In this document: in pieces, positions 726 to 45,865 of the stretch
Numbering within the stretch: the first letter of the stretch is position 1
Layout of the letters: each line of letters opens with the position of its first letter
Assembly (NCBI GenBank): GCA_000934665.2
Contig: KZ538184.1
Span: 1 to 64,000 of the forward strand
Length of the DNA stretch: 64,000 bases
Origin: Catajapyx aquilonaris
Taxonomy: Eukaryota
Reading direction: 5' to 3'
Notes under the pieces: model-generated
The model's input: the letters and a program-made list of their open reading frames with translations, nothing else
Database searches by the model: none
Told to the model about the DNA's origin: nothing
Program-made: the position numbers and the translations under genes

Positions 726-3700
726 AACTTTTCAAGCGGTATCCAAGTTCAGTTACGTCCAACATATTGCTTTATCAACGTTGGGGCTGTCACATATTCC
801 TGACCGGTACACCTTATTTAACGGTAAATAAACAATCGGGAGTACCGCACCCTCTGCCATTTAGAAATGAAGATGTTTTCGCCAGCAACATATTGTGTTA
901 CATACACTGTTGTCATCAAGTACGTCACACTCATAACATGACTTTTGCACGCTACACATAACCCGTTTTACAAAATTGAAAATTCAACACACACACAGCC
1001 ACCGTACAACAATTTAATAACAATATTAGCAATACCTGCAACAATTGGGGTGGATACCTGTCATTATTTGCGCCACCTATTTTCACGAGATGCCCGATTT
1101 AATAAAAGGCTACGCCCTAAAACTGGGTCCTAAAAATTCCGCGCCCTTCAGTGGGCTGGAAAAGAGAAGAGGCGGGTTTATTATCAATCGGTCAATGGAT
1201 CTTTTTAGTTTTTTTTTTTACCGAGTGGGAACTGAGCCTCTTTGTTTCTTTGACCCCGAAGCCACTTGCCTTTGTTTCCATCATCCAAATTAAAAGCAGG
1301 ACAGAAAATATTCCACTAACGGGACACTTGTCTTTTTTTTTGCGTAAAAAATATTATAATAAGAAACCAGTAGGAATAAGGGACATTGTATTTCGCACGA
1401 AACCTATTTGAATACGACATGTCCTACTTTCAATAATTGCGGTCGGTATTTGGTTCAGAAAATAATTGGCGGAAAATGTTGCGGAGAAAAGGATATTCAT
1501 TAGGACGTTTCATTAGTTTTTTTTCACAATTTTGATGTCGGTTGACACAAATAGTGGAAAAACTTTCTTTGACGAACTTTTTCTTTGTCAGGAAGGTCAT
1601 ACTGTGGACAATATTCTGAGTCAGTTTCAGCTTAGATGGATTTAAAATTTTGATAATAAGTCCTCGACTTATTTAAAAGGAGGACACATATTCCGGTTGC
1701 ATCAGGTGTTTTGCCATTTCAAATTGCGGAAATTTTGCACACATTTCCATATTAATGATCTGGCAATTTTCCACATAATAATGTATGCAAATATCTAGTG
1801 ATAAATAAATGAGTGGAAAATGTACACGTTTAAAAGAGGAGGTGGAACAAAAATAAATGGAAATTTGCCCACTAAATTTAAAAAAAACAATGAATAATAA
1901 TTTTGACATAATCGGAGATTTTGTTTAAAATTTATGTCATGGCAGAAAATGCTTAATTTTTTATTCACCTTACAGTAGTAAGTGGAAAAGCGGTAAGCAG
2001 GATAGTGCTCTGTTGTGTAAATTAGATTACAAGCCCGTTTTTCTGATGTAATTACACACGACCCCGCCTTGTATTACCTGAGTTACCATGATAATATGTT
2101 GTTTTTTTGCACATAAATGAAAGGGTGAGGATCTCGGACGACCCCGGAAATTTCACCCCTGCCATGTTAGACAGGTTTCACTCGCGGGTTACGAAACGAT
2201 CCTTCTCTGGAAGCTCGCAATTTCCGGGCCCATGGAAGACACTGCCAGAGAAAGTGACCTCGTCCGGTTTTTCCGCCAGCGTTGAATAATTATATCAAGT
2301 CACTGGAAGGGCGATTTCATTTGCGCAGGTTATGTGAAAATTTGCAAAAAATCAGCAAAGTTTAATTTTGTCCAAATTATGAGGAATGTTCACAGAGACA
2401 ATGCTTTTTTTTTCGTAAAACAACAATTGAAGTCAATTATTACAAATGTCGTTGAAAATTGTTGCATGTGCAAGGCTGTGTGCGATATATGGATTATTAT
2501 AGCGAAAATTTGTGTGGCATAAATATTTAAAAATCGACAGATCCCAACCAATATCGTATATAGGGTCCATGAAAAATCGTCAATGAGCTATATCGGCATC
2601 TATCGTTAAAATACTGCATATTGCTACAGCATGTGAAGAGAATGTCGTTCACACGTGAGATATTATTTTAGGTGTCTATTTTTAAATATAAGAATCATAA
2701 ACAATTTGATGCAATCTGATATTATCTATATACTGGAAGATCGATAGATTTTAAAAATTGACTTTAAAAAATATCTCTCGATATTTTCACATTTTATTGA
2801 CATTTTTATACATTTCGATATCTCATACATTCCTATATTTTCATATATTCGATGTTTAACTCATTTTGACACTTTATTAATTTAATTGATAATTATTTAT
2901 TCAATTTTATACCCCTTTTCCTTTTGATATTTTTATACATTTCGACACTGACACATATTAAATACATATTCGATATTTAATTCATTTTGATATTTGTATA
3001 CATTTCGATACACTGTATATTCCGATACGTCATACATCATTACGCATACGCAAAGGGCCAGACGTATTGTTTCCGTTTCCGCTCGTCGTTTCGCACAGTG
3101 TTGACACGAATATCATCGCGCCACAAATGGCATCATTAAAAATGGCTAACCGCTCCTCCGAGGTGAATATTAGACACTAGTTGTCTCACGCATGGCCAAC
3201 CCCCACACAAATCTTTGTCCCATTGCCGTCTGGACATATGCTTGTTGACGGAAGTCAAGAAGCTACATTCTTCAAGAGACTGGACAACAACTGGACTCCG
3301 CTTTTGTTTATCCCATCCACAACTTTTCAGTGGGTGAAGCTGCAAGGACGTTACATAAAAAAGTGGTTGTATTATTCATCCTTCTTCCGGTGTACCGTTA
3401 CACAGAGCTATACAAATCCATTTAGAAGAGTAATTGGCAGTTTGTGCCGTCCAGGGACGATTTTTCTGTGGCGCCCGTTGACTTCAGGGGAGCTGAATCA
3501 CCTTGAGACCCAAATAGTGTTATAAATACTACGTTGAAAAGGACGACAGATGGGCGAAGGGGACAATAGTGCACTGGAGCCACGTGTACCACATGTTTGC
3601 ACGTACACAAAAGTTGTATTTCTCGATTTTCAAGTGTCTGGACTGCCTAACGGGAACTGCCTTTTTTTTTCTTCAAATCAATTCAGAATATTTGGGGTTT

Positions 3701-13500: not shown

Positions 13501-16500
13501 AAAAATGCAGGGTGTTCCTATATATGAGACTGGATATACATTAATACATACAATAGTTAGCAATTAATATTGGTAAAAATTAGCAATTGTTTGAGTCTTC
13601 CTGCAATCTGTTATAATAATGTCACTAACCTCTAGTTATCTGAAACTTGACACATCAGTGTAAAACCCATATCATTACAGAGATCTTCCCCAACTTTTTC
13701 CTCCCAAAGGCAACTTCTCGTGACATGTCCTTCAAAACACTGCCACTCTCATTAGCTCGAAACACGAAAGCACAACAAACACAAAATCAACTAAAGCTGT
13801 CCCTCCAGGAGCTGACTGTCTCTGATTCCATTAGGTAACGTGTGTCACGACCAACCCCTGAAGGGCACTGGCCCTTTCATCTATTAGATAACACACTCTC
13901 TGTGTGATAGACATTCTAAATCCTTATACGACAGGATGAGCACACAGGTCGTGAGGATCCAATTTCTTCAATTTTTTTTGGACGGTCCTATACCCTCCTA
14001 AAAAGGCGGTGTTGTTTAACCCTTTCTTGATTCAGTTTTTTTTAAAGAGAGCAGCAATTAAGATTCCATTGCGGCAATAAAAGTTAGGGTTGGGAGAGTT
14101 AACGGCTCGCTGCTTGCTCTACCTCAACATAACCATAACAAGAAGCCGACACTTGTTTTTTGCCAGCAATAACTGTGGCCCATCATCATACATCATTCGA
14201 GGCGTGGGAGGCATGCATGTCGAGAAGAAACAAAAAGTTTCTTATGTAATAACTCGATTCATACTTACCAGTTCCTTGTGTTTCATCTGGGGCGAAACAA
14301 AAAGAAGGGGAAAAAGTTAGAAAGTAGTATTGACCTACCAAAAAAATAACAACTCAAGGTGGTCAATTGCAACATGTGTTTGCATAGGTCAGGAATACAT
14401 TAGCACCCTATTAGGACATGTTAGACTAATTAGCACCTTAATGTGGGGCTGTAGGCTGGCGTAAGGTAAACTAGATTTAAGAGATGCAGTATGTCACGCC
14501 AAATTGTAGTTTAAAAAAAGTTAATCTGAGAACAACCTGGTTTAATTGGTGGTTACCTGTCCTATTTTCGTTTTGAATGTACCAGATACTATTTGGAGAA
14601 AATTACTGTAGGTCATGAACAAAATATGTGTGTTTCAACCAGGTCGAAACAGTGACAGAGACCTACCCATGATCTTGGCCATCGTAGGGTTTAAATTTAA
14701 TCCCACCCCATTTTAAAATTCCCAGCACGTGGACCACCTTCCCGGCGGGTATCCAAAAAAGACTTGACGAGAACTGCATTTTCTCCTTTTCCCTTCACAG
14801 AGCGATCACGCAACGGAGAGGTCAGAAGGGGAAGTAGTCGAATCCGCCTTGAGCCCTACCCATCAGGTGGGAGGTTCCCTCCAACCTGGCCACACCATAA
14901 TCAAACCAGAAGAGTCTCCAGTGTACCAGAACCTGCCAGTGTATCAGAACCTTGTCCATGAGCCAATCTACGCCAACTCCGAGCAGGACGAGCACATCTA
15001 CGAAAACGTATATTTCGACAGCCCCATACCACGTCTTCCGCCCAAACTCCGGGTGATGGACCCTCTTCACATCAACCCGTACCTGGGATCGGACCAGAAG
15101 TGTCATCAATCACCCAGTCCAGACTCGGGGATATACGACGTGCCTAACACGACTGCTAACAACTGCGTTGGACATGTCACGCTTGATGACACCGAGTCAT
15201 CCGTCAGCCTGGACAGCCTTAATGCTGAGGAGGTAAAACCAGACTTAGACTTGGGCCTAAGCGTCAAATCAGGATTAGATACTAGAGGAATCTTAGGGAT
15301 AGAGCTAGGCCTAGACTCTAGATCGGATCTAGGACTGGAGCTGGGCCTAGTCTCCCGACCAGACATATGCATGGACCTAGGCCTAGTCACCAGACCGGAT
15401 CTAGGCCTAGCAGTGGAGACAGGGCCCATGCTGGCCTTAGACCAGAAGATGTCCCCAGAAGATCCGACTAGTCTCAGCAGCGATTTCACTCTGAGAGATG
15501 ACAGTCTGGAAGCATCCAACACTAACGCGACAGGTTCGATGAGCGCTGATAGCCTCAACAGTGTCCATCATAATAGCCTTCTGGACAGCTTAACTGAGGA
15601 CGCCCAAACGGCCGTTATTGCCATTTCTGAAGATGGTACTTGGGAGACCATGAACCCTGCAGTGGAAGACCTACAAGAGCAGCAGGTCGTGAACGAGAGG
15701 CATTTCTCCGAGGGTGGCTCGACCGAGGCAGTTGTGGAGCTGCAGCCATCAGAAGAGGAGGAAGACATGGAGGATGGAGGTCTCAAGCAGCGGAATCTGG
15801 GTGCACAGATCATGGAGAAGTACGAGCAGGATCAACAGAAGGTTAAGGACAGCCTGAATCTTCCGGAGATTTGTCTTCTGGACATGGATGAATCGCTGGA
15901 GGATATTGAGAAGGAGAGGAGGAAGATCATCGAGAACCAGGCAGTGCGTGTTAAAAGGATCAGTTCGTGGATACGAGGCCAGGAAGAATCGGAAATAATG
16001 GTCACCGAAGCTGAGTTGGAGGATTTGGAATTGAAGAGGATGGAACATCTGAAGAGGCAGCAGATGATGAAGGAACAAGGAAGGACAAAGGTGATGACCA
16101 TAGGGAAGGAGCTGCAAGTATTCACCCAGGATCAGGAGGTGACAGACATTGCCGATGGTAAGATATATCACTCTTTTATTCACTAACGCAATACTCCGTA
16201 ACAAAAAAACATGATCCAGTTTATATAAGTCATTAAACGCTTCTGTCATGTGTAAATTACATACTTGAAACGCTCTGAAAAATTTCTCGACCCAAATACT
16301 GCCAATTTTTGAGTTGAATGGTCAGGAAACAAACAAAATACAACCGTTTGGCCGCTGGCTCTTAAGAAGGTGGTGTCACAGCAGAAGTGTGCAAATAATT
16401 CACAGACGTACATTTCAGTCACCAGGAGCCCAACAGAGCGGTAAGATGCAAAACAATAGCACACATGCGGTGTAAGTGGGTCAAACAATTTCGCTGCCCG

Positions 16501-31500: not shown

Positions 31501-34500
31501 GACATGTTCATTCATGATGTATAAGTTTTTGCAAATATGATTATATTTCCCTATGCAAAAATTTTTGACTTCAGGCTTCAAATCCACAAGGGTGAACTCA
31601 CAAATATTTTTGTAGGGAGCTGTAATATTATTTGCGAAAACTTATACATCAGAATGAACGCGTTCAGGAAAATGTTTCGTACTATTTTAATCAAAACGTG
31701 ATATGATCAGTACGTTAGATATGACTTTACATTAGTTATTGGCGCCAATTGATGATTTTTAGTCGATGCACTTATCTCCCCTTAATCGTCCGAATCAGCT
31801 TTAATCATAAAATGTAACCGATTGATAAATCTGGTGAGCAACATAAATGATGAAGCAGATGACACAATTTCACATGCCTTATCGTCCAAATGCTCCAAAA
31901 ATTGGTGCTCATTTCCACTCCATATGTTGACATCACTTTTTCGATTGTTGTGTACCGTTCGGGGGTTCAAAGTTCGAAGCCAGCGTTTGCAACTCTGACT
32001 CTTTTTTTTATCACGTAATCAGACACCTACTCGCGCACACACGCACTCGCAGTCTTCATCGTGCAACCGAACACTTTTGATGCACATTTGACAAGCCAGG
32101 TGTTAAGTAGCAGTCACTGACGGATTTACTGATTACACGTACCCGGAATAATGCCAGGTAATGGATAAGCGCACCCGTTTTGTAGTCATGACAATTATCA
32201 AGCGCGCACATAACGAGGAAAATGCTATTTTTAATGTTAACAATATTGTTTACTTTCAGGCGAGGTGGTGTCCGAATCCATCATCGACAACAAGGAGAAG
32301 ACCAAGTCGTACTGGGAGACAATGATGATGGCAGCGGCTGCCGAGGTACAACACAGACAGCTGCAGTTTCCACCTGAATACATGGCAGAGACAAAGTCGC
32401 CGCCTCCACCAGAGGAATTTCAAGTGGGTAGTTGAGAAGAATAACAAGTTGAATCTGATTACAGACAGAGCAATACCGATAACAACCAGCAGTGTTAGAC
32501 TTGCTTGAAATTAATTCAAAAGCTATCGAAGAGCTATCGAACATCAAAATCGTTTCTGAAGCCTACATGTTACACGTCTCGAGCGCGTCTAACCTAGCCT
32601 AACCTTAGCGTGCAATCTCTCAAAGAAGAGCTGCAAAATAAAATATTCACTATTTACAAGCTAATACTTTTTATAATAACCAAAGCTGTCAAAAGGAACT
32701 TATGATAACTATATGAAATGTAGGGGCGAAAAATGACCAATTCAATAGGATCAACATGTGTATATATTATATAAATTTATTATCGCTTCTCTCGTGATTA
32801 CTTAGCCTGCAACTTCCGCCTGCATTTCTCTATCATGTCTGCTATAGGAATGTCCTTTAGACAACAATATTTTTTTCCTCATATTTATTTGGGTTTATCA
32901 CTGGTATATGCGACAATCACTCATACATACGTCACCCTGATCAGAGTTGCACACTTTCAAGGATTTTTTAATACTTATGTTTATATGTATATAAGGACGA
33001 TACAATTAACCCCACGTTATCTCCTCACCGTCAACGAGTTGAAGTGTATACCGGACCTTTACACCCAGGCTTTTGTTTTAATCTGCAGGACAAAGATACC
33101 CACGATCCTCTGATAAGAGAAGAGCCCCCCACAGGCGACCTTCTCGACCTGTCCGAAGTGCCAGTCTCCAGTAGTGCTCCGACGGTAGTGGACACCGTCA
33201 GCAAGAAGCAGGTCTCGTCAGTGGTAATACCATCCAACATAATCGAGCAGGAGATCCGGGAACAGAAGCTGAGAGAAGCATCTCTGAGAGAAGAAGGTCT
33301 GTTGAAGAAGTTCCAGGAAGGACAGCAGATGCAACCGAAGGAAGAGACGGAGGAAGTGGTCGCAGACAGTTACCACACTGTCGTGGCTGACGATGGCGAA
33401 GAGATTATATACGACACTGTGGCTCCTGTGAATCACCATCACCATCACCACCATCACAATCAGGCGCCGAACGCGACCGAGACAAAGATAGCGATGGAGA
33501 TACGTGAGCTGAAGGAGAGAGAAGAGGAGCTCAGGCAACTCAGGCACAGGTTCAGCTCCAAAGATCAGGGTTTGGACGATGCCAACATGTACTCCAGCAT
33601 CACAACAACTGACGAAAGTGCTTTTTCGGAGTACGGAAGCGAAAAGGAGCTCATGTGCAGCAGTGACGACAGCAACAGGTGAGCATTCGTATATGATTTT
33701 CCTGGCGGGAAAGAATCCGTCCAAAAAAGTAAGGTACGGTTGCACCACCGCCAGGAAAAAAAAAAATCGCCTGGAAAATAATCAGAAAATTGTGTGACGA
33801 CAGAAAGTCAAGTGAATATTGGATTTTTCAGAATTAAATAAAGCTATTTAAAAAAACTAAAGTAGGCCTACTATTGCACCACCCCAATGAAAAATATTTC
33901 GGCTGGAAAAGAACCAGAAAACTTGTCTGGTTGTAACAAACTCAGATAAAGAAAAAAAAATCTATGATTATGTTCTTATGAATATCCTGCTATATAGAAG
34001 ACGTTTCAAATAAATTAATGGACGATTGTTGGCCATGTAAATTTTTGATTTGATTGAGGAAGGTCACTTGAAGGTAGCGGATGTGACATGAATCACTTGA
34101 GTCATGGAGAATCACGTTTTGCATATTTATTTTCGGCGAGAAACTGACAGGCGCTGAGTCATTGGTTCGAGGGCGTTAATTCGTCACACTCGTTACAGAA
34201 ATTCACGCAGTATGCTAATAATAATTGCATTACACATTGATGAATATTTTTGCCATCTTGACGCTTATCACTGTTTGACGTCGATAGCCCTAATTTTGCA
34301 TAAAAAATTGCACAATTTTGCGCAATTTTAACGAAAAAGCAGACGTTGCCTTGAAATTAACACTCAGCTTGGCAGAATTTACATTTTGGTGAAATTTTGA
34401 CATCCTATGACTACATCATTAACATGATTTTTATTAATTAAAAAAAGCATAGTGTAAATTAGTGCTCCGTTTGGATTTAATCCTGGAACGAAGTGCGTGA

Positions 34501-39457: not shown

Positions 39458-41693
39458 ATGAGCACAAGGCGCACGTACCTCACCGCCACATCTAAATGGC
39501 AAGACTGCATGTGCAGCAGGGTACCAGGCTCAGGTCCCAGGGTCGAAGTCGAACCCTCAATGAAGTGGATTCGAGCACTCTGCCAGCAAGAGTACGGAGG
39601 CTACGGGTAAATAATAATAATAATAAAAAAACGGCAGGCCAATTTGGTTCATGTCAGATTCCACCTAAATATTTGTGTCTCTCTGAATCTTTCAGCAATG
39701 AAAATATTCGTCGGAACCCGTACGATCTCACCCAAGAATGCGCAAACTCTAAAATGGTGCCTGGAGACTGCGGCCCCCCGGAATTCCCCAGGAGAGACTA
39801 CAGGAGCCGGTACACCATCCCAGACTGGGTCCAGCACCACGGAGACCAGTACTGCAACACCGAGAGAATTCACCAGATGTCCAAACAGATCCAGAGGGAC
39901 ACAGTAGAGCTCCTCGAGTAAGATTGAAAAACTACTAACTTACTACTACTCCTACTCCTACTCTACTACTATCGTACATCTCACCATTCTTTCCTCTCTT
40001 CATTTCCCTCTTCGTTTCTGTCTCCATGTGCCCCACCTTCCAGATAGGCATAGTTGCTTTGGCTCCTTTTCCTATATAATAAACCAAACCCAAACAATAT
40101 CTCTCTCCTTTGTTATAGGCTGTCAGGAGGGCCAAACGACATGTCGCAAGACAGGGCCAGGACTGAACTTCACTTGAGAAACAGCGTGATGGAGCTAAAG
40201 CAACAGAGGGACCAGCTGACGGACGAGATCAAGGAGAACGAGGATGAATTTGGGAAGCTGCTGGAGGTCCGAAACCTACTTGGAAAGGCACATAAGGAGC
40301 TGAACGAGCCAAGGAGGATCATCAGGGAGACCCTGAGCATTCGTGAATACCGCAAAGGTATATCCAGTTTTTAACTTTTCCGATTTCCCCCCCTTCACTC
40401 CCCCATGTCAAGAATGTAACACTGGGCCCGACCCCCCCTCCCTGCCGTTACCCATCGACAGGCATAGAGAAGGTGCACGACACGGCTGAGAAGTGTCTCC
40501 TGAGAGAACTCTGCATCATCCAGAGGTGGAAAGACCTGCTTCTCCCTTTGATAGACAACGTCAATCTGCAGGTACTGTACCGGATGTATGTAACGGAGAA
40601 TAATTACAGCAATGTTTGCTTTGACTCTCATCGAAACAACTATTGCAGCTCGGTCGCGTGAGGGCCACCCGAATCGTCCTGGAGAAAGACGTGCCCAACA
40701 AGGACATGGCCATCGACGTCAACAAGGTCTGCCTGGAGAGACCCCCTTTGTTCTGCGGCAACGACTACGCCGGAGCTTCGGTCGAGGAGATAGACAATGC
40801 GTGAGTGTATACCGGTATACCCAAGAGGGAAGATCAGCCGACTTTATGCGTTTCTTATGCGTTTCTTATGCGTTTCTTATGCGTTTCTTATGCGTTTCTT
40901 GTGCGCTTGTTGATCGTTTCAGAGTAAGCGACCAATCTTCTGGTCCCGTTCTGCTCGCTGCGCACATTAAGGAGTCCCAGTGTGCCAGGGATGCCTCGAG
41001 GCTGGCCCGTGAGAACGGCAACAAGGCGGTGAGCCAGATGGTGCACGAGATCTGGGAGGCCTGGTGCTTCTCCGGGATGGCCCTGGCCGAGAGGGCAAAG
41101 GAGACCCTGAGGGCCAAGGAGCACCTGGACTACTACCTGCACAAGCTGGACGAAGACATCCAGTGCCAGGCAGACCTCCTCGGGAAGCTGACCTCCGCGG
41201 CCAGGGAGAGGCTCTGCTCCGAGAAGCTGGCCAGGGCCAGACTCGAGAAGAGGATGGACCAGCCATGCACAGAGCTGTGGAGAGACCAGGCACACAACAA
41301 GTACGATAAACCCTTGCACTTTTAACCTAACCTAACCAACCGAACTTTGAGCTGTTTCTTTTCTGCCATGTTTGGTGCGATATTTTCGAATAGTTATTTT
41401 GAACAACAAAATTATTGGGTCTGTTTTTTTTCAGCCTGGTTCTGGAAGCGCGTAAGAGCGCTTGCATGTCGTACAGGCTGTACGACAAGGCCAGCGAAGC
41501 AGAGTTCCTGAAGGAGAGGATGCAGGAGGCTCGAGAGGCGGTGAAGGACGACATAAATCAAAAGTTGGACACGGTCAGAATCGACAGGGACACCTGCCTC
41601 AGGATGAGGAGCCCCTTCCCCTTCTCCATCACTGTGTTCCAGGACAACCAGGAGGATCCAAATTGCCAGTTATTTAAGACAGAAAAGTACTAA
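39458..41693 (+). CDS. Tektin (TEKT3/5-like, divergent), 502 aa, 7 exons
   Basis: Exons 39458-39606, 39696-39917, 40119-40357, 40462-40571, 40649-40800, 40923-41300, 41435-41693. Tektin-like motifs RYTIPDW, REYRKGIEKVHD, LEKDVPNKDMAIDVNKVC, ARLEKRMDQPCTELWRD, IDRDTCLRMRSPFP. Confidence 0.85.
40844..40900. repeat. 11-bp tandem repeat (tttcttatgcg) in a tektin intron
   Basis: About five copies. Confidence 0.9.
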
Positions 41694-42291
41694 AATTGAA
41701 ACAACATGTAAAAAAAGAAGAGAAACGCGGGTTTTAAGCTCACGACGAAACATTAGAAAACATTAGGCAATTAAACATCTTTAAAAATTTGTCGAGTTAT
41801 TATATTGAGGGCTTGTCACGAATGTGTTTTTCTATCTGAAGCAGGATGGGTGCGATGTTTCATCGGTTTATCGTTGTTGTCCATCGTGCACTGTTGCAGC
41901 GCAAGGCATGTAGGCCAACCGGTAATTGCAGGATTCATTAAAAAGGAGTGTGTACAGGAATTTATTCAGCTTCGCCGCCTTTCGAAACTAGATTCAAACC
42001 AGCCGCCGTTATCAGCCGCAAGATGGAGTTGCCAGCTGCTTCATGTTCTATTTAAATTTAATTAATGTCAGGATTAATAATTCCAAGTAAGGATTAATTG
42101 CATACTTAATAACAATTAAGATTTAAATACCAGACGGGTGCTTCACCTGGCAACGTTTGTTCAGTCCGCCTATTATTACGTATCACTTTTTGTTGTTGTT
42201 GTTGTTGCATTACGACCAAATTTTTTGGCTCAAAAAATAGTTGTTTTAAATCATACAAGTGTGTACTACCACCTGCTGGCCTGGACTGGCC

Positions 42292-42546
42292 ATGTTTGTG
42301 TGGCACCATCCGGGCAGCAGCCACCAGCAGCACCAGCAGCAGCACCAGTGCCCGTCCGCCCCTGGGCCGCCCCCGGGTGTTGTTGTTGCCGCCAGATCCC
42401 GCCCTGCCTGGCTGTCCCTGATAGCCATCTTCTTCAACCCTAGGGTCCTCACCCTCTGCATGCGGCTCTCACTGGCCCTCACCTGCATGTCCAGGTCGGA
42501 CAGGCTCGGGTTCCTCATGCTCATGCTCGCAGTCACTTACTACTAG
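42292..42546 (+). CDS. Unrecognised small protein (>=84 aa, hydrophobic C-terminus) in the putative OMA1 5' leader
   Basis: gccATG start and strong C/G third-position bias (ctg gcc ctc acc tgc atg tcc agg tcg gac agg ctc ggg ttc ctc...), TAG at 42544. Followed by a canonical intron 42560-42626 leading to the OMA1 start exon. Confidence 0.55.
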   Translation: MFVWHHPGSSHQQHQQQHQCPSAPGPPPGVVVAARSRPAWLSLIAIFFNPRVLTLCMRLSLALTCMSRSDRLGFLMLMLAVTYY

Positions 42547-42666
42547 GGCCTATTAACCGGTGAGTTGTTGTTGAACAGACACATGTGTCGCAAGGTAACA
42601 CATTAATTGCCGTCTTTTCTCCTCAGGGACTATTGAGCGCCGGCTGGCCTTTTTTAAATTAAAAAA

Positions 42667-45600
42667 ATGGCGTGTTTGTTGCGAATGAGGTTGCGGACTA
42701 TAGTGGGACGTCCGCCGAGTGCGTCTCCTCTCGGACAGTATGTAGTGCGGAGATGTGGGTTTCATACGACTACGCCCAATCGGGCCGTTCCGCCATTGGT
42801 CGTGGTGCTCATGAGATATGTGGCCAAGATTGGGATGATTATATTTGGGAGGAAGTTTCGGAAGTGGTGGCAGGCCCTGCCGCCTGAGAGGAAGGCAAAG
42901 TTACTCAACGCGGCGAAGGAGAAAAAGGTGTACATTGCAGGTAAGACGTAGCACAGGTCATGTTGCTCATAATGTACGTAATTAGTATTTTGCCCCCTGA
43001 ATACCCTATAAAGGGTGGCACAGGGTAAGACAAATAAAATTAAAATAATTATTTTGCAGGCGGTGTTGGGTGCTTGAGTATAGCGTCGTATCAGTACTAT
43101 TTATCCCATCTTCAAGCAACGCCCGTGACCAATCGAATTCGCTTCCTAGCCTTCACTCCGGAGCAGATGATGGAGATAGGCCAGCATCAAACTGACTATG
43201 TAAGTCTCTAGCCCCTGAATCCGCAGGTCTGAACAGTTTTAGCGCAAAAGCTCGGCATGATAGTAACTTCAGAAAATGTCGTGCGAGGACAAAGTCATAA
43301 GTTGTTTATACATTTTATTCATGACTGTTCAAGGAGATTCTGTGTATTTAACTCCTGGCACTTTTTTTTAAAATTGCAGTACTTGGAAAAGTATAAGATT
43401 CTTATTCTACCAGATGAGGATCCTAATACGCAGAAAGTGGTGAGAGCTGCCACTCGACTTCTGAAGGCCAACAGGGACTTACCGCAGGTCGTGGACAAGG
43501 ATTGGACCATCACCGTCATCAACCTGCCGTTGGAGAGGAATGCCTTTGTGCTTCCAGTTAGTACCTGTATCCTTCGAAGTTACAGATTACGTTGCATTAG
43601 GCTATGATTTGTTGTATTGTTTGGTTCGTTTTTGTTTGCTCAGAATGGAAGCATATTTGTATTCAGAGGGATGCTGGACGTGGCGCATAACGAGGATCAG
43701 CTTGGCTGCATCCTGGGTCACGAGGTAGCCCATGCCATTTTAGGACATGGAGTGAGTTCATTCGTTTTCGTTTTGCAAAGTGCGCAATTTAATTTCGATA
43801 ATTTTTAATTGTCAAGCAAGTTAGAGCAGGTGAGCTACATGCACCTGGTGGACCTGGCAATGATCGTAGCAATAGGTGTAATTTGGGCAGTGATTCCTGG
43901 TGACATCCTGGCTCTCATCACCCAGTCGCTTGTCAGCTGGATGACAGACCTGATGCTGCATCTCCCGTTTGGACGGAGCTTGGAGATAGAGGCTGACGAG
44001 GTGGGACTCATGTTGGCTGCTAAGGTACGCAGATGTTTTCAGTTGGTTTTTGTGTTGAAGAGCAGAAGGAGGAACCACTTTTTAAAGGCCTAAATATCTC
44101 AATGGATTGGAAAACATTGTTAACCCTTAACTGGTGCAGTGAAAAAAAGGATTTTCCCGGTGCAGTGGCGTCTCGAGTGGCGACTTGGAAATTTTTCACA
44201 TGTAAACGTAAATTGGTGAATTTTAGAGGGTCTTTTTCGATTGGATTAATAATTTTCAGGACAAAAATTTCCAAGTCTGTGAGGATGGGTTAAGTGTTTT
44301 TTTCCCCCCCAAATAAAATCCAGCTTACTGCTTGCTCTGAGTAGTTTGCAGCAGTAATTTTTACGAGCCGTTCCATGCAGTACTTGAGAATTGCTCGAGT
44401 AAGACCTATGGTACAGCTTAAATCAATTGGTGAAGGTCTTACGTGCGCCTGGCTTGGTTCAGTACCTTCATTCCGGCACGGTCTTACTACCCTTTTTTTC
44501 ACTGGAGGGAATGTTTTTGCTCTTATTTCAGTTCTTTTTTTAAACCCCTTCGCAATACCAGCTATACTGCCATCCCTTTGGTTGTCACTTACACGTACTC
44601 TGATGATAAGGACAATATACAGGGTGTTTCAGAGTCACGGGTCAAGCGCGCACGAGGGGTGGGGAAAAATTGTAGGTGGCGACAACCCCAGTCAGTTTTA
44701 TAAAACAATTAGAAATACGCCAGTAATCTATTTATTTATTACTGCAGTACGGTGTGACGTCACATCCTTTCTGTTCTAATCGAGTGGCGCGGACTGGCAG
44801 GTTGAACCTGGTTGAGCTGCTTTTTAGCCTTGCGGGTTGCACCGGAAAAGGCGCTCTCATGCTATGCCGGCAGGGTACTGTACAAAGTAGTTACTACTGT
44901 ACAGTATTGTGAGCAGGTGAGCAGGATTCCTTCTTCTGCCGCTTCAGAAAATGTCGCAAGCAGTTGGCTCGATGTATGACCTATACTGTACAGTAGTACA
45001 CTACTTTGTACAGTACCCTGCTGGTGTAGGATGAGAGCGCCTTTTCTGGTGCAACCTGCAAGGCAAAAAAGCCACCGCACCAAAGGGTTGATGAAGATTT
45101 CACAGGCCGGTTAGGACAGCCCTCATCCCCTTTTCCAGGCCGGTTTAATTGCTTTCACTTGTGCAGATGCACCAAGATGTTCGTTACAAGCAGGACTGAA
45201 TGGGCCAATGCCTGTGTTTACAATTATTAATTGCAAATTGTACAGCGTTGAGTACTCCTGTCCCTTTCTGTGCAGAGCAGATACACTATGAATGCAATTC
45301 GGCTCCTTTGGTTTCTGACTCACACGTTGGTGTCTTTAAATATTTTTGCAGGCTTGCTTTGATGTTCGTGAAGTGAGTGCCTTCTGGGGCTACATGGCCC
45401 TGCAAGGGGAGCTCGACGAAGAGGAGGAGATTGAGTGGCTCTCGACGCACCCAAACAATGACAGGAGGCAGTATCATCTGGATGAACTCATTCCTAATGC
45501 CCTCAAGATCAGGAAGGATTACAGTGCAAGTGTCGTTGGTTACTTATTACTGTAAATATAATGTCTCGCACCTTCTTTGCAGACGGGTGTATTTTTTGGG

Positions 45601-45794
45601 GTTTCATTGTGATGCTGCGCAAACTTGATAACCAATAATGCTTATTGCAGTGTCCATTGTTGACGCGAGAGGATCCGAGGCAGGAAGTGGAGAGGGTGAG
45701 GGAAGCAATGCAAAACGACAGGGAAGAAGCGGTCGCCATGTACGGGCGGATGAGGACGAGGCATAACGTAACACGATCATGGCAGAGTTCCTGA
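42667..45794 (+). CDS. OMA1: Mitochondrial metalloendopeptidase OMA1 (peptidase M48), 406 aa, 7 exons
   Basis: Exons 42667-42940, 43060-43199, 43380-43556, 43644-43751, 43821-44024, 45352-45525, 45651-45794. Arg-rich mitochondrial-type N-terminus, GRKFRKWW, NAFVLPNG, zinc motif HEVAH, RSLEIEADEVGLMLAAKAC, WLSTHP. Confidence 0.95.
44124..44289. mobile_element. Possible piggyBac-type MITE remnant in an OMA1 intron
   Basis: TTAA-CCC ... GGG-TTAA termini. The terminal repeats are very short, so support is weak. Confidence 0.35.
44819..45072. mobile_element. Fold-back MITE with ~90-bp inverted arms in an OMA1 intron
   Basis: 44819-44907 pairs with 44983-45072 (gccttgcgggttgcaccggaaaaggcgctctcat...cagggtactgtacaaagtag). 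Confidence 0.8.
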
Positions 45795-45865
45795 AATAAG
45801 ATGAAATTCTAGTAGGCTGTGAAACAGATTTGTTGAAAATTGTATACCCTAGTTATTTTGAAATC

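Follow-up and report, generated by a model that had tools for sequence, protein, structure and literature searches.

A conserved small open reading frame in the OMA1 leader of Catajapyx aquilonaris as a candidate second product of the OMA1 gene

MIEF1 and its upstream microprotein are a known bicistronic pair (PMC13303939), and the MIEF1 uORF has been suggested to serve translational control as well as coding (PMC7530721). The uORF of SLC35A4 encodes a conserved hydrophobic protein of about 100 amino acids and also makes translation of the main ORF stress-responsive; the protein, STREMI, is similar to MIC10 and contains two GxxxG-bearing transmembrane domains (PMC13303939). The same article names PYURF-PIGY and ASDURF-ASNSD1 as bicistronic animal genes (PMC13303939).

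In the stretch of Catajapyx aquilonaris DNA analysed here (the window: 64,000 nt, positions 1 to 64,000 of contig KZ538184.1), a small ORF lies in the leader of the gene for OMA1, a protease of the inner membrane by which OPA1 is processed and mitochondrial stress is passed on to the integrated stress response (bioRxiv 10.1101/715896). On sequence evidence this ORF represents a new protein family and the mRNA a new example of the bicistronic animal type. The locus adds a Pfam-less, unnamed small-protein family to the short list of well-supported mRNAs of this kind, a family that is invisible to standard annotation with one CDS per mRNA.

Layout and transcription of the locus

The features of the locus are collected in Table 1. 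The small ORF coincides with a GC-rich island (the flanks are 39-43% GC), as the sequence-only reading of this DNA had noted, and its translation is identical to the peptide given there. It lies in a different frame from OMA1, and TGA and TAA codons in the OMA1 frame precede the OMA1 ATG, so that the small ORF is not an N-terminal extension of OMA1; that earlier argument and the accompanying distance of 40 nt from the leader intron to the ATG are both borne out. GC at the first, second and third codon positions is 0.595, 0.488 and 0.833 in the small ORF and 0.562, 0.384 and 0.621 in OMA1. For the last 50 non-repetitive codons of the small ORF the values are 0.46, 0.48 and 0.86, a spread matched in 2 of 20000 permutations. 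No ATG occurs in the 224 nt preceding the small-ORF ATG (42068-42291; ATG-free in 285 of 20000 shuffles), and the five ATGs of the leader are all in the same frame and run to the same stop (as in 47 of 4470 shuffles). An Rfam search over the whole window gave no matches.

Table 1. Positions of features at the small ORF-OMA1 locus in window coordinates.
Feature	Positions	Strand	Basis or remark
(TTG)6 repeat in 5' leader	42190-42207	+	
5' leader, inferred contig start to small-ORF ATG	42193-42291	+	no ATG; 1683-nt spliced model
Minus-strand ORF, 96 aa	42246-42536	-	open frame only
Small ORF, 84 codons + TAG	42292-42546	+	ATG 42292, TAG 42544-42546; first ATG of transcript
Variable N-terminal part, residues 1-34	42292-42393	+	His/Gln/Pro-rich; unconserved in alignments; predicted disordered, pLDDT 47-65
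CAG/CAC-type repeat within N-terminal part of small ORF	42314-42348	+	
Conserved domain, residues 35-84, to C-terminus	42394-42543	+	alignments of homologues
Spacer, first 13 nt up to splice donor	42547-42559	+	
Leader intron between both ORFs, 67 nt, GTGAGT...CTCAG	42560-42626	+	GT..AG; absent from spliced contig
Spacer, last 40 nt (spliced total 53 nt)	42627-42666	+	TGA + TAA in OMA1 frame
ATTAAA between ORFs	42658-42663	+	
First coding exon of OMA1, start codon in context AAAAAAATGG	42667-42940	+	contig, splice sites, alignment to L001/L002/L004 OMA1
OMA1 coding exon	43060-43199	+	contig joints, splice sites, translation
OMA1 coding exon	43380-43556	+	contig joints, splice sites, translation
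OMA1 coding exon with HEVAH	43644-43751	+	contig joints, splice sites, translation
OMA1 coding exon	43821-44024	+	Peptidase_M48 E 0.0015, contig joints, splice sites
OMA1 coding exon	45352-45525	+	contig joints, splice sites, translation
OMA1 last coding exon, TGA 45792-45794	45651-45794	+	contig joints, splice sites, stop

The gene downstream of the small ORF encodes an M48 metallopeptidase domain with the HExxH motif, present as HEVAH in the 406-residue window protein. Peptidase_M48 is matched by a single exon in the window, just under the cut-off, by the OMA1 proteins of three other loci that carry homologues of the small protein (L001, L002 and L004; E = 1.4e-30 to 2e-31) and by an exon of a fourth (L003; E = 1.6e-11). 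The full window protein is 39-42% identical to OMA1 of L001, L002 and L004. Its assignment to the OMA1 subfamily is presumed from the call of the sequence-only reading and the conserved RKWW.ALP N-terminal region rather than from a subfamily model. The six distinct chain sequences that a PDB search with the L001 protein returned were all of M48/BepA (source names 'Peptidase, M48 family' and 'Beta-barrel assembly-enhancing protease'); no OMA1 structure was among them.

A 1683-nt spliced contig of one public run (X1; depth 16) contains the small ORF and continues through OMA1 past its stop. It is colinear with 42217-42558 and then with 42626/7-42934, skips the leader intron and six OMA1 introns, spans seven OMA1 exons and ends at 45849; 24 further letters upstream of 42217 fall in a skipped repeat, and the contig's length is matched to the letter by a spliced model that begins at 42193. 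The predicted 67-nt intron, from CCG/GTGAGT at 42560 to CTCAG at 42626, is removed at the joint 42558/42626 (cut +1), and the junction 42559/42627 that had been proposed as a transcript check is used. The suggested co-transcription of the two ORFs is thus matched by a contig that joins them. A suggested extension of the small ORF, by splicing out 42087-42259, to an ATG at 42065 is not supported: the contig follows the genomic sequence without a break there, and a start near 42193 suits its length. The in-species transcript evidence consists of this one contig, from a single run of unrecorded library type. The X1 contigs give no cover of 41000-42168 and are uninformative on the upstream gene and the true 5' end; a shorter OMA1 mRNA starting downstream of the small ORF would be compatible with them.

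Both this contig and those of L001, L002 and L004, which are intronless, mRNA-like and 1.5-1.9 kb long, show a mature mRNA bearing the two ORFs without overlap; the contig of L004 terminates in AATAAA and an A-run. Contigs are no proof of single molecules, and the joint ones could be read-through products or assembly chimeras of two separate genes. The two ORFs have, as stated earlier, no AATAAA between them, but they do have an ATTAAA, which would suit two genes and which the contig reads through. Cleavage directed by this signal would, however, land in an OMA1 coding exon, the spliced junction links the small-ORF exon to the exon with the OMA1 ATG with 255 letters on its shorter side, and the three independent contigs come from other organisms, with their ORFs 29-44 nt apart. 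Two separate genes are therefore highly improbable.

Homologues, selection and character of the small protein

A phmmer search of 1.84 billion representative proteins produced eight matches at E <= 1e-3, seven of them small unnamed proteins (52-109 aa) to whose C-termini window residues 32-84 align (E = 6.6e-8 to 3e-4). A profile search with the small family found 15 proteins (E = 4.6e-28 to 1.2e-6). At all four loci that were fetched (L001, L002, L003 and L004), a Peptidase_M48/OMA1 ORF follows the homologue on the same strand, and with the window the spacer is 29-63 nt in five of five cases. An indirect fifth case is P0017, a read-through ORF call whose alignment to L001 (nt 29-430) crosses the small-ORF stop into the 5' coding region of OMA1. 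The position -3 is a purine at four of the five small-ORF ATGs and A at all five OMA1 ATGs. Expression as a fusion by read-through or frameshifting was considered and rejected, given the intervening stops and the frame offset from small ORF to OMA1, which varies among the loci (2, 2, 2, 0, 1).

Between L001 and L002 the 46-codon domain is identical at 38 of 46 residues (pS 0.66, pN 0.145, dN/dS 0.10); dN/dS is 0.07 for L001/L003 and 0.05 for L002/L003, with pS at 0.66-0.75 over the three comparisons. The window shares 22-23 of the 46 domain residues with L001 and L002, and the corresponding OMA1 proteins are 41.5-42.2% identical. The amino-acid sequence encoded by the upstream ORF is thus subject to purifying selection between species. 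These comparisons indicate that the conserved feature is the peptide and not the nucleotide sequence, and that the order of small ORF, 29-63-nt spacer and OMA1 is kept across lineages in which OMA1 itself is only about 40% identical. The dN/dS values and the recurrence of the ORF ahead of OMA1 in four of four loci answer the two comparisons that the sequence-only reading had called for, and they uphold its claim of a real protein-coding unit. Linkage to OMA1 is established for part of the family only, namely among members other than the 'KREPPVWL' subgroup (P0002, P0004, P0011-14, P0018-19), of which P0002 is on a contig of 59 kb and P0012 on one of 45 kb.

The significance of the small ORF derives from these homologues. 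Its length alone is not significant: when the spliced leader is shuffled with dinucleotides kept, 426 of 5000 versions contain an ATG-initiated ORF of at least 84 codons; a stop-free stretch of at least 95 codons in any of the six frames arises in 2540 of 5000, and the leader bears trinucleotide repeats. A chance ORF in a GC-rich, repeat-bearing leader would account for these figures. It would not account for homologues with a conserved peptide, saturated synonymous sites and a conserved position, and it is considered extremely improbable. The same applies to a relic of a minus-strand coding sequence: the 96-aa minus-strand ORF has an atypical composition (GC1 < GC2) and no Pfam match, and is open, on our reading of the frames, because it has its third positions in common with the plus-strand ORF, whose GC3 is high.

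The conserved domain follows the pattern R.RP.(W/F)L.(L/F)I.(L/I)FF(N/S).RV ... (R/K)L.L....M.(R/K).(E/D)R(L/F)GF....(L)... In a 17-row alignment Leu41, Ile44, Phe47 and Phe48 are invariant and Arg51, Val52, Gly73 and Phe74 are conserved in at least 90%; the N-terminal 34 residues, encoded with a CAG-type repeat, show no conservation. Confidence in the AlphaFold2 model is moderate (mean pLDDT 66.6, pTM 0.32); it predicts helices at residues 39-47, 50-68 and 72-82 (pLDDT 70-85). The C-terminal 50 or so residues are thus, by alignment and prediction, a basic, hydrophobic domain of three putative helices that defines a previously unnamed small-protein family. The domain contains 5-7 Lys + Arg, and its net charge lies between +2 and +6. 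The Kyte-Doolittle 19-residue maximum is 1.58 for the window peptide and reaches at least 1.6 in only two of 17 members (P0005 at 1.69 and P0018 at 1.81, the latter within a doubtful N-terminal extension), where a 19-residue mean of about 1.6 or more was taken as bilayer-spanning. By this measure the small protein is not a clear transmembrane protein, and the membrane character given to it in the sequence-only reading is a possibility.

The family had not been recognized in the sequence-only reading, and the searches agree. The window peptide matches no Pfam family at E <= 1, and seven homologues gave only one sub-threshold, chance-level row. A PDB profile search with the family found no relatives at E <= 1, and Foldseek of the model against the PDB gave no matches at E <= 0.001 (best E 3.3). 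Source names of the homologues are all 'hypothetical protein' or absent. Word-index protein searches gave no match, either for the 84-aa peptide among proteins of near length or for OMA1 exon 1 among longer proteins; the ESM Atlas gave no usable match to P0001, and 200 pattern matches in prokaryote genomes included no relatives. No description of the family was found in the literature covered, a scope to which the gene lists behind PMC7530721 and PMC13303939 do not belong. An origin as a split-off piece of OMA1 was also considered; hhalign against OMA1 of L001, L002 and L004 gives a probability of 0.2%, so the small family is not such a piece of these proteins.

Proposed expression and role

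Conservation of the last 50 residues at the same position in distant relatives makes it very likely that the OMA1 gene does have the small protein as a second product. The preferred reading, with a probability of roughly 0.7, is a two-cistron OMA1 mRNA that yields a trans-acting small protein and in which the uORF limits OMA1 synthesis. The first AUG of the transcript opens the small ORF, which ends 53 nt before the OMA1 AUG once the leader is spliced. Scanning ribosomes would translate the small ORF first, and OMA1 would be made by the fraction that reinitiates after the uORF stop or leaks past the uORF AUGs; the uORF would thus both give a stable small protein and limit OMA1 synthesis, and it may couple that synthesis to eIF2 status. 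By analogy with other uORF-encoded mitochondrial microproteins, the small protein would most likely be a trans-acting component of the OMA1 pathway at mitochondrial membranes.

It is unlikely that the uORF is a purely cis-acting CPuORF, in which the nascent chain stalls or slows the ribosome at or near the stop and so sets the supply to the OMA1 AUG with no functional product. The peptide is conserved between lineages, its conserved block is C-terminal (0-2 residues short of the stop in most members, behind a variable N-terminus), and the spacer to OMA1 is short in all five cases, as would be expected of such an element. However, the most strictly conserved residues (the four invariant ones, with Arg51 and Val52) sit 32-43 residues ahead of the stop, a distance that equals or exceeds the length of the ribosomal exit tunnel, and the last residues differ among members (VAF, LALY, VTYY, VALG, IAL). 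The L004 protein retains the Leu41-Val52 motif and has lost the C-terminal half. In the domain of about 50 residues, hydrophobic and basic positions also follow a helix-like pattern, and its GC3 exceeds that of OMA1 itself. The distance of the motif from the stop, its retention in L004 and the predicted helices are pointers to a trans-acting product; a cis role may exist alongside such a product, with which these points are compatible.

The earlier inference that the small protein may partner OMA1 or control its translation is a possibility within the two-cistron reading. A more specific version, put forward tentatively and judged doubtful, makes the small protein an ancient, dedicated partner that is always co-expressed with OMA1 from one mRNA. 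A basic amphipathic peptide bound at the cardiolipin-rich inner membrane would gate stress activation or stability of OMA1. OMA1 synthesis would rely on reinitiation and hence on eIF2 status, which, if true, would link the integrated stress response and its triggering protease in a closed feedback loop. Vertebrate OMA1 has a longer N-terminal pro-region, which could be a fused or replaced version of the module. To our knowledge, how OMA1 stays latent and then becomes activated is an open question. A coding unit fixed 29-63 nt before the OMA1 start, despite the divergence of OMA1, makes a strong candidate for a regulator so far missing, with a possible action through its protein, through gating of translation, or through both.

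Comparison with known bicistronic pairs and regulatory uORFs

A close likeness is to MIEF1 and its microprotein (MIURF, MIEF1-MP or altMiD51), where a conserved small protein is likewise encoded by a non-overlapping uORF on the mRNA of a gene, in that case one for mitochondrial dynamics. The main ORF there encodes a fission adaptor, whereas here it encodes an inner-membrane protease, and the present pair is known from sequence alone. MIEF1-MP is a LYR-motif protein and so of a different family from the OMA1-linked peptide, which has no Pfam match and by sequence belongs to none of the known microprotein families.

SLC35A4 and STREMI (SLC35A4-MP) provide the dual-function uORF model that is favoured for the OMA1 leader. 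Unlike STREMI, the OMA1-linked domain has no GxxxG motif, is broken by conserved Arg/Lys residues and has a hydropathy under the threshold usual for transmembrane segments. The two SLC35A4 products act in different organelles, whereas a functional link between the small protein and OMA1 may exist. With PYURF-PIGY and ASDURF-ASNSD1 the OMA1 pair has in common an animal mRNA with two conserved coding regions, but the protein families are unrelated and the pathways different.

CPuORFs and ATF4-type leaders resemble the OMA1 leader in having an upstream ORF that translation of the main ORF must pass, at a short distance from the main AUG and, for CPuORFs, with a conserved peptide. At 70-84 codons the OMA1 uORF is long for the regulatory type, and the positions most conserved in it lie well away from the stop; the ATF4 leader has a two-uORF arrangement, in contrast to the single uORF ahead of OMA1. 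In the sequences compared, the OMA1 pair thus resembles the known bicistronic pairs in layout and belongs to none of their protein families.

Gene layout and transcript evidence

The window is eukaryotic, with GT..AG introns and a tektin-like gene (end 41693) followed by an M48 peptidase gene of OMA1 type, whose 5' leader contains the small ORF. Translation of this ORF matches the 84-aa peptide of the sequence-only reading. In the spliced leader the small ORF lies 53 nt from OMA1 and in a different frame, and both a TGA and a TAA precede the OMA1 ATG in the OMA1 frame; as had been proposed, the small ORF is not an N-terminal extension of OMA1. The same reading reported no AATAAA between the two ORFs, which holds for that hexamer, yet an ATTAAA is present there (42658–42663).

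Coordinates of features in the window and in the four related loci from metagenome contigs (L001–L004)
Feature	Position	Strand	Details
Window, tektin-like gene	40594–41693	+	Pfam Tektin, E 4.9e-14 (40594–41322) and 1.4e-6 (41415–41690); stop 41691–41693
Window, small ORF	42292–42546	+	ATG 42292; TAG 42544–42546; 84 codons
Window, antisense ORF	42246–42536	−	96 aa; overlaps small ORF, third codon positions common to both
Window, leader intron	42560–42626	+	67 nt; donor CCG/GTGAGT 13 nt after small-ORF TAG; acceptor end CTCAG/
Window, OMA1-type ATG	42667	+	start context AAAAAAATGG
Window, OMA1 intron	44025–45351		1327 nt
Window, last OMA1 intron	45526–45650	+	GC..AG; donor AGT/GCAAGT
Window, OMA1-type stop	45792–45794		
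Window, longest stop-free stretch	14768–16186	+	472 codons; ~52% GC region
Window, AKAP2_C match	32972–33679	+	sub-threshold; E 1e-4; 22.1 bits (cut-off 27)
L001, small ORF; OMA1-type ORF	47–268; 313–1509	same strand	spacer 44 nt
L002, small ORF; OMA1-type ORF	17–256; 286–1503	same strand	spacer 29 nt
L003, small ORF; OMA1-type ORF	69–284; 348–	same strand	spacer 63 nt; genomic, with introns
L004, small ORF; OMA1-type ORF	52–264; 308–1495	same strand	spacer 43 nt
L003, further ORF	2701–3024	−	107 aa; signal-peptide-like start

Transcript evidence comes from X1, the sole public run containing this DNA, with library type not recorded. One X1 contig (1683 nt, depth 16) covers 42217–42558, skips exactly the leader intron that had been predicted from its GTGAGT and CTCAG sites, and continues through six more GT..AG or GC..AG junctions in OMA1 up to 45849; it is taken as RNA-derived because seven introns are missing from it. 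A spliced model built from its joints with a start at 42193 is exactly 1683 nt long and encodes a 406-residue OMA1-type protein. In this contig the exon with the end of the small ORF is physically joined to the one in which OMA1 begins, so that the proposed co-transcription is borne out by a single spliced sequence carrying both ORFs. An optional splice (42087–42259), suggested as extending the small ORF to an ATG at 42065, is unsupported, since the contig is colinear across 42217–42291. Contigs reveal neither the true 5' end nor whether extra, shorter mRNAs exist; because the tektin-like gene ends just upstream, the OMA1 promoter must be within roughly 250–400 nt.

Several other features of the region were observed. 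The GC..AG form of the last OMA1 intron is backed by the X1 transcript contig. Within the 1327-nt OMA1 intron, many short X1 contigs pile up at 44340–45007 with a summed word depth of 30–89, compared with 16 for the contig of OMA1; many of these contigs end loosely and are just 90–95% alike, as would fit a repeat or transposon fragment that is expressed and dispersed. Downstream of the tektin-like stop, ATTAAA occurs at 41770 and 41937. The longest stop-free stretch of the window has no Pfam match at E ≤ 0.001, and the weak AKAP2_C match hints at what may be an animal-type gene.

Coding character and conservation

The length of the small ORF alone is not beyond chance, since 426 of 5000 sequences made by dinucleotide shuffling of the 407-nt leader have an ATG-initiated ORF of at least 84 codons. 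Composition is the more telling sign of coding. The GC-rich island coincides with the extent of the small ORF (flanking DNA 39–43% GC), with GC1/2/3 of 0.595/0.488/0.833 versus 0.562/0.384/0.621 in OMA1, and over the non-repetitive last 50 codons the values are 0.46/0.48/0.86, a spread reached in 2 of 20000 permutations. All five leader ATGs fall in the small-ORF frame (47 of 4470 shuffles) and the 224 nt upstream of 42292 are free of ATG (285 of 20000 shuffles), two statistics that were picked post hoc and have supporting value only. The antisense ORF, which has no Pfam match, was rejected as a gene; it is read as a by-product, open because it shares third positions with a sense ORF of GC3 0.83.

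In a scan of metagenome contigs, 450 stretches matched and four encode a relative; each of these four loci has the small ORF immediately 5' of a Peptidase_M48 ORF, with both on the same strand. L001, L002 and L004 (1.5–1.9 kb) have unbroken OMA1 ORFs and look like mRNAs; AATAAA plus a run of A close L004, and in L002 an AATAAA lies 9 nt before the end. The database protein P0017 (151 aa), a read-through ORF call, aligns to L001 nt 29–430, running through the stop and the spacer and on into 5' coding sequence of OMA1, and is an indirect fifth case of the linkage. In pairwise comparisons of OMA1, the window's protein shares 41.5% identity with L001, 42.2% with L002 and 38.6% with L004 (L001 versus L002, 71%), and identities this low to the window indicate that the arrangement is common to three or more deeply divergent lineages. 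In L003 the further ORF sits downstream of OMA1 and is read from the other strand.

Nei–Gojobori analysis over a 46-codon domain gives low dN/dS for L001/L002 (0.10; pS 0.66, pN 0.145; 38 of 46 residues identical), L001/L003 (0.07; 0.73, 0.18; 31 of 46) and L002/L003 (0.05; 0.75, 0.18; 33 of 46). Synonymous sites are saturated in comparisons with the window and residues still match L001 and L002 at 22–23 of 46 positions; conservation of the domain in these comparisons is at least that of OMA1. The low dN/dS and the matches despite saturation show that selection acts on the peptide and not on an RNA element. In L004, NRPAWLSLINLFFSPR is kept and the C-terminal half has diverged, with no frameshift.

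The small-protein family and its predicted structure

A word-index protein search with the 84-aa peptide gave no match. A phmmer search of 1.84 billion representative proteins produced eight matches at E ≤ 1e-3, one of which (1445 aa) was set aside as matched via a proline run. The other seven (52–109 aa, E 6.6e-8 to 3e-4, 38–52% identity) align their own C-terminal ends to residues 32–84 of the query, and a profile built from them matches 15 small proteins (E 4.6e-28 to 1.2e-6), all either unnamed or 'hypothetical protein' in every source checked. The 17-row family alignment comprises a variable N-terminus, which in the window's peptide is His/Gln/Pro-rich and based on a CAG-type repeat, and a conserved domain, about 50 residues long, with the pattern R.RP.(W/F)L.(L/F)I.(L/I)FF(N/S).RV ... 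(R/K)L.L....M.(R/K).(E/D)R(L/F)GF.... Leu41, Ile44, Phe47 and Phe48 are invariant, and Arg51, Val52, Gly73 and Phe74 are at least 90% conserved. Several database entries exceed 100 aa (P0017, P0023, P0032, P0004 and P0012); the ORF caller ran past the stop (P0017) or began at an upstream in-frame ATG, so that automatic calls for this family have unreliable ends.

Pfam yields no family for the window's peptide at E ≤ 1 and none for the seven homologues except one chance-level row. Searches of the PDB and the ESM Atlas gave no match, and the prokaryote genome set has 0 relatives among 200 pattern matches. The family, unrecognised in the sequence-only reading, likewise has no Pfam family, PDB relative or source name here, and the small ORF defines a new small-protein family. 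Its domain shows no relationship to the adjacent OMA1 in an hhalign comparison (probability 0.2%).

AlphaFold2, run from the alignment, predicts a disordered N-terminus and helices at residues 39–47, 50–68 and 72–82 (domain block-mean pLDDT 65–85, overall mean 66.6, pTM 0.32), and a Foldseek search with this model gave no match. The last 50 residues contain 5–7 Lys+Arg and 1–3 Asp+Glu (net charge +2 to +6). Mean hydropathy over 19 residues peaks at 1.58 in the window's peptide, and just two of 17 members reach 1.6. The protein would thus be hydrophobic and basic with no clear bilayer-spanning segment, so the earlier label of 'membrane microprotein' is plausible only.

Proposed mechanism and comparison with known systems

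The two ORFs share one mRNA on which the small-ORF AUG comes first, and both peptide and position are conserved. Under the scanning model of translation initiation, the −3 purine at the small-ORF AUG in four of five loci, together with further AUGs inside the ORF, suggests that most ribosomes should translate the small ORF first. For the OMA1 AUG, which has A at −3 in all five loci, reinitiation across the 29–63 nt spacer, or leaky scanning, would then be the main route of access. Such a scheme predicts more small protein than OMA1, and OMA1 output could hinge on eIF2 availability. A pure arrest peptide, through which the small ORF would act in cis only, is unlikely: the invariant residues lie 32–43 residues from the stop, L004 retains the motif of invariant residues alone, and the domain is long and helix-patterned. 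These features favour a trans-acting small protein with an unavoidable cis effect. The small-ORF observation is confirmed and its earlier interpretation is supported, the function of the product being a prediction only.

Literature searches on OMA1 with uORF, bicistronic, microprotein or smORF revealed, among the papers listed, no description of a small ORF upstream of OMA1, although a table-only listing is possible, and in PMC13303939 OMA1 appears solely as a protease and knock-out. The arrangement resembles the bicistronic pairs MIURF-MIEF1, PYURF-PIGY, ASDURF-ASNSD1 and STREMI-SLC35A4 as described in PMC13303939, and it overlaps the CPuORF concept as outlined in PMC7530721. The window's small protein falls outside the protein families of these pairs. 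With the small ORF and OMA1, a known kind of gene organisation gains a new and well-supported case.
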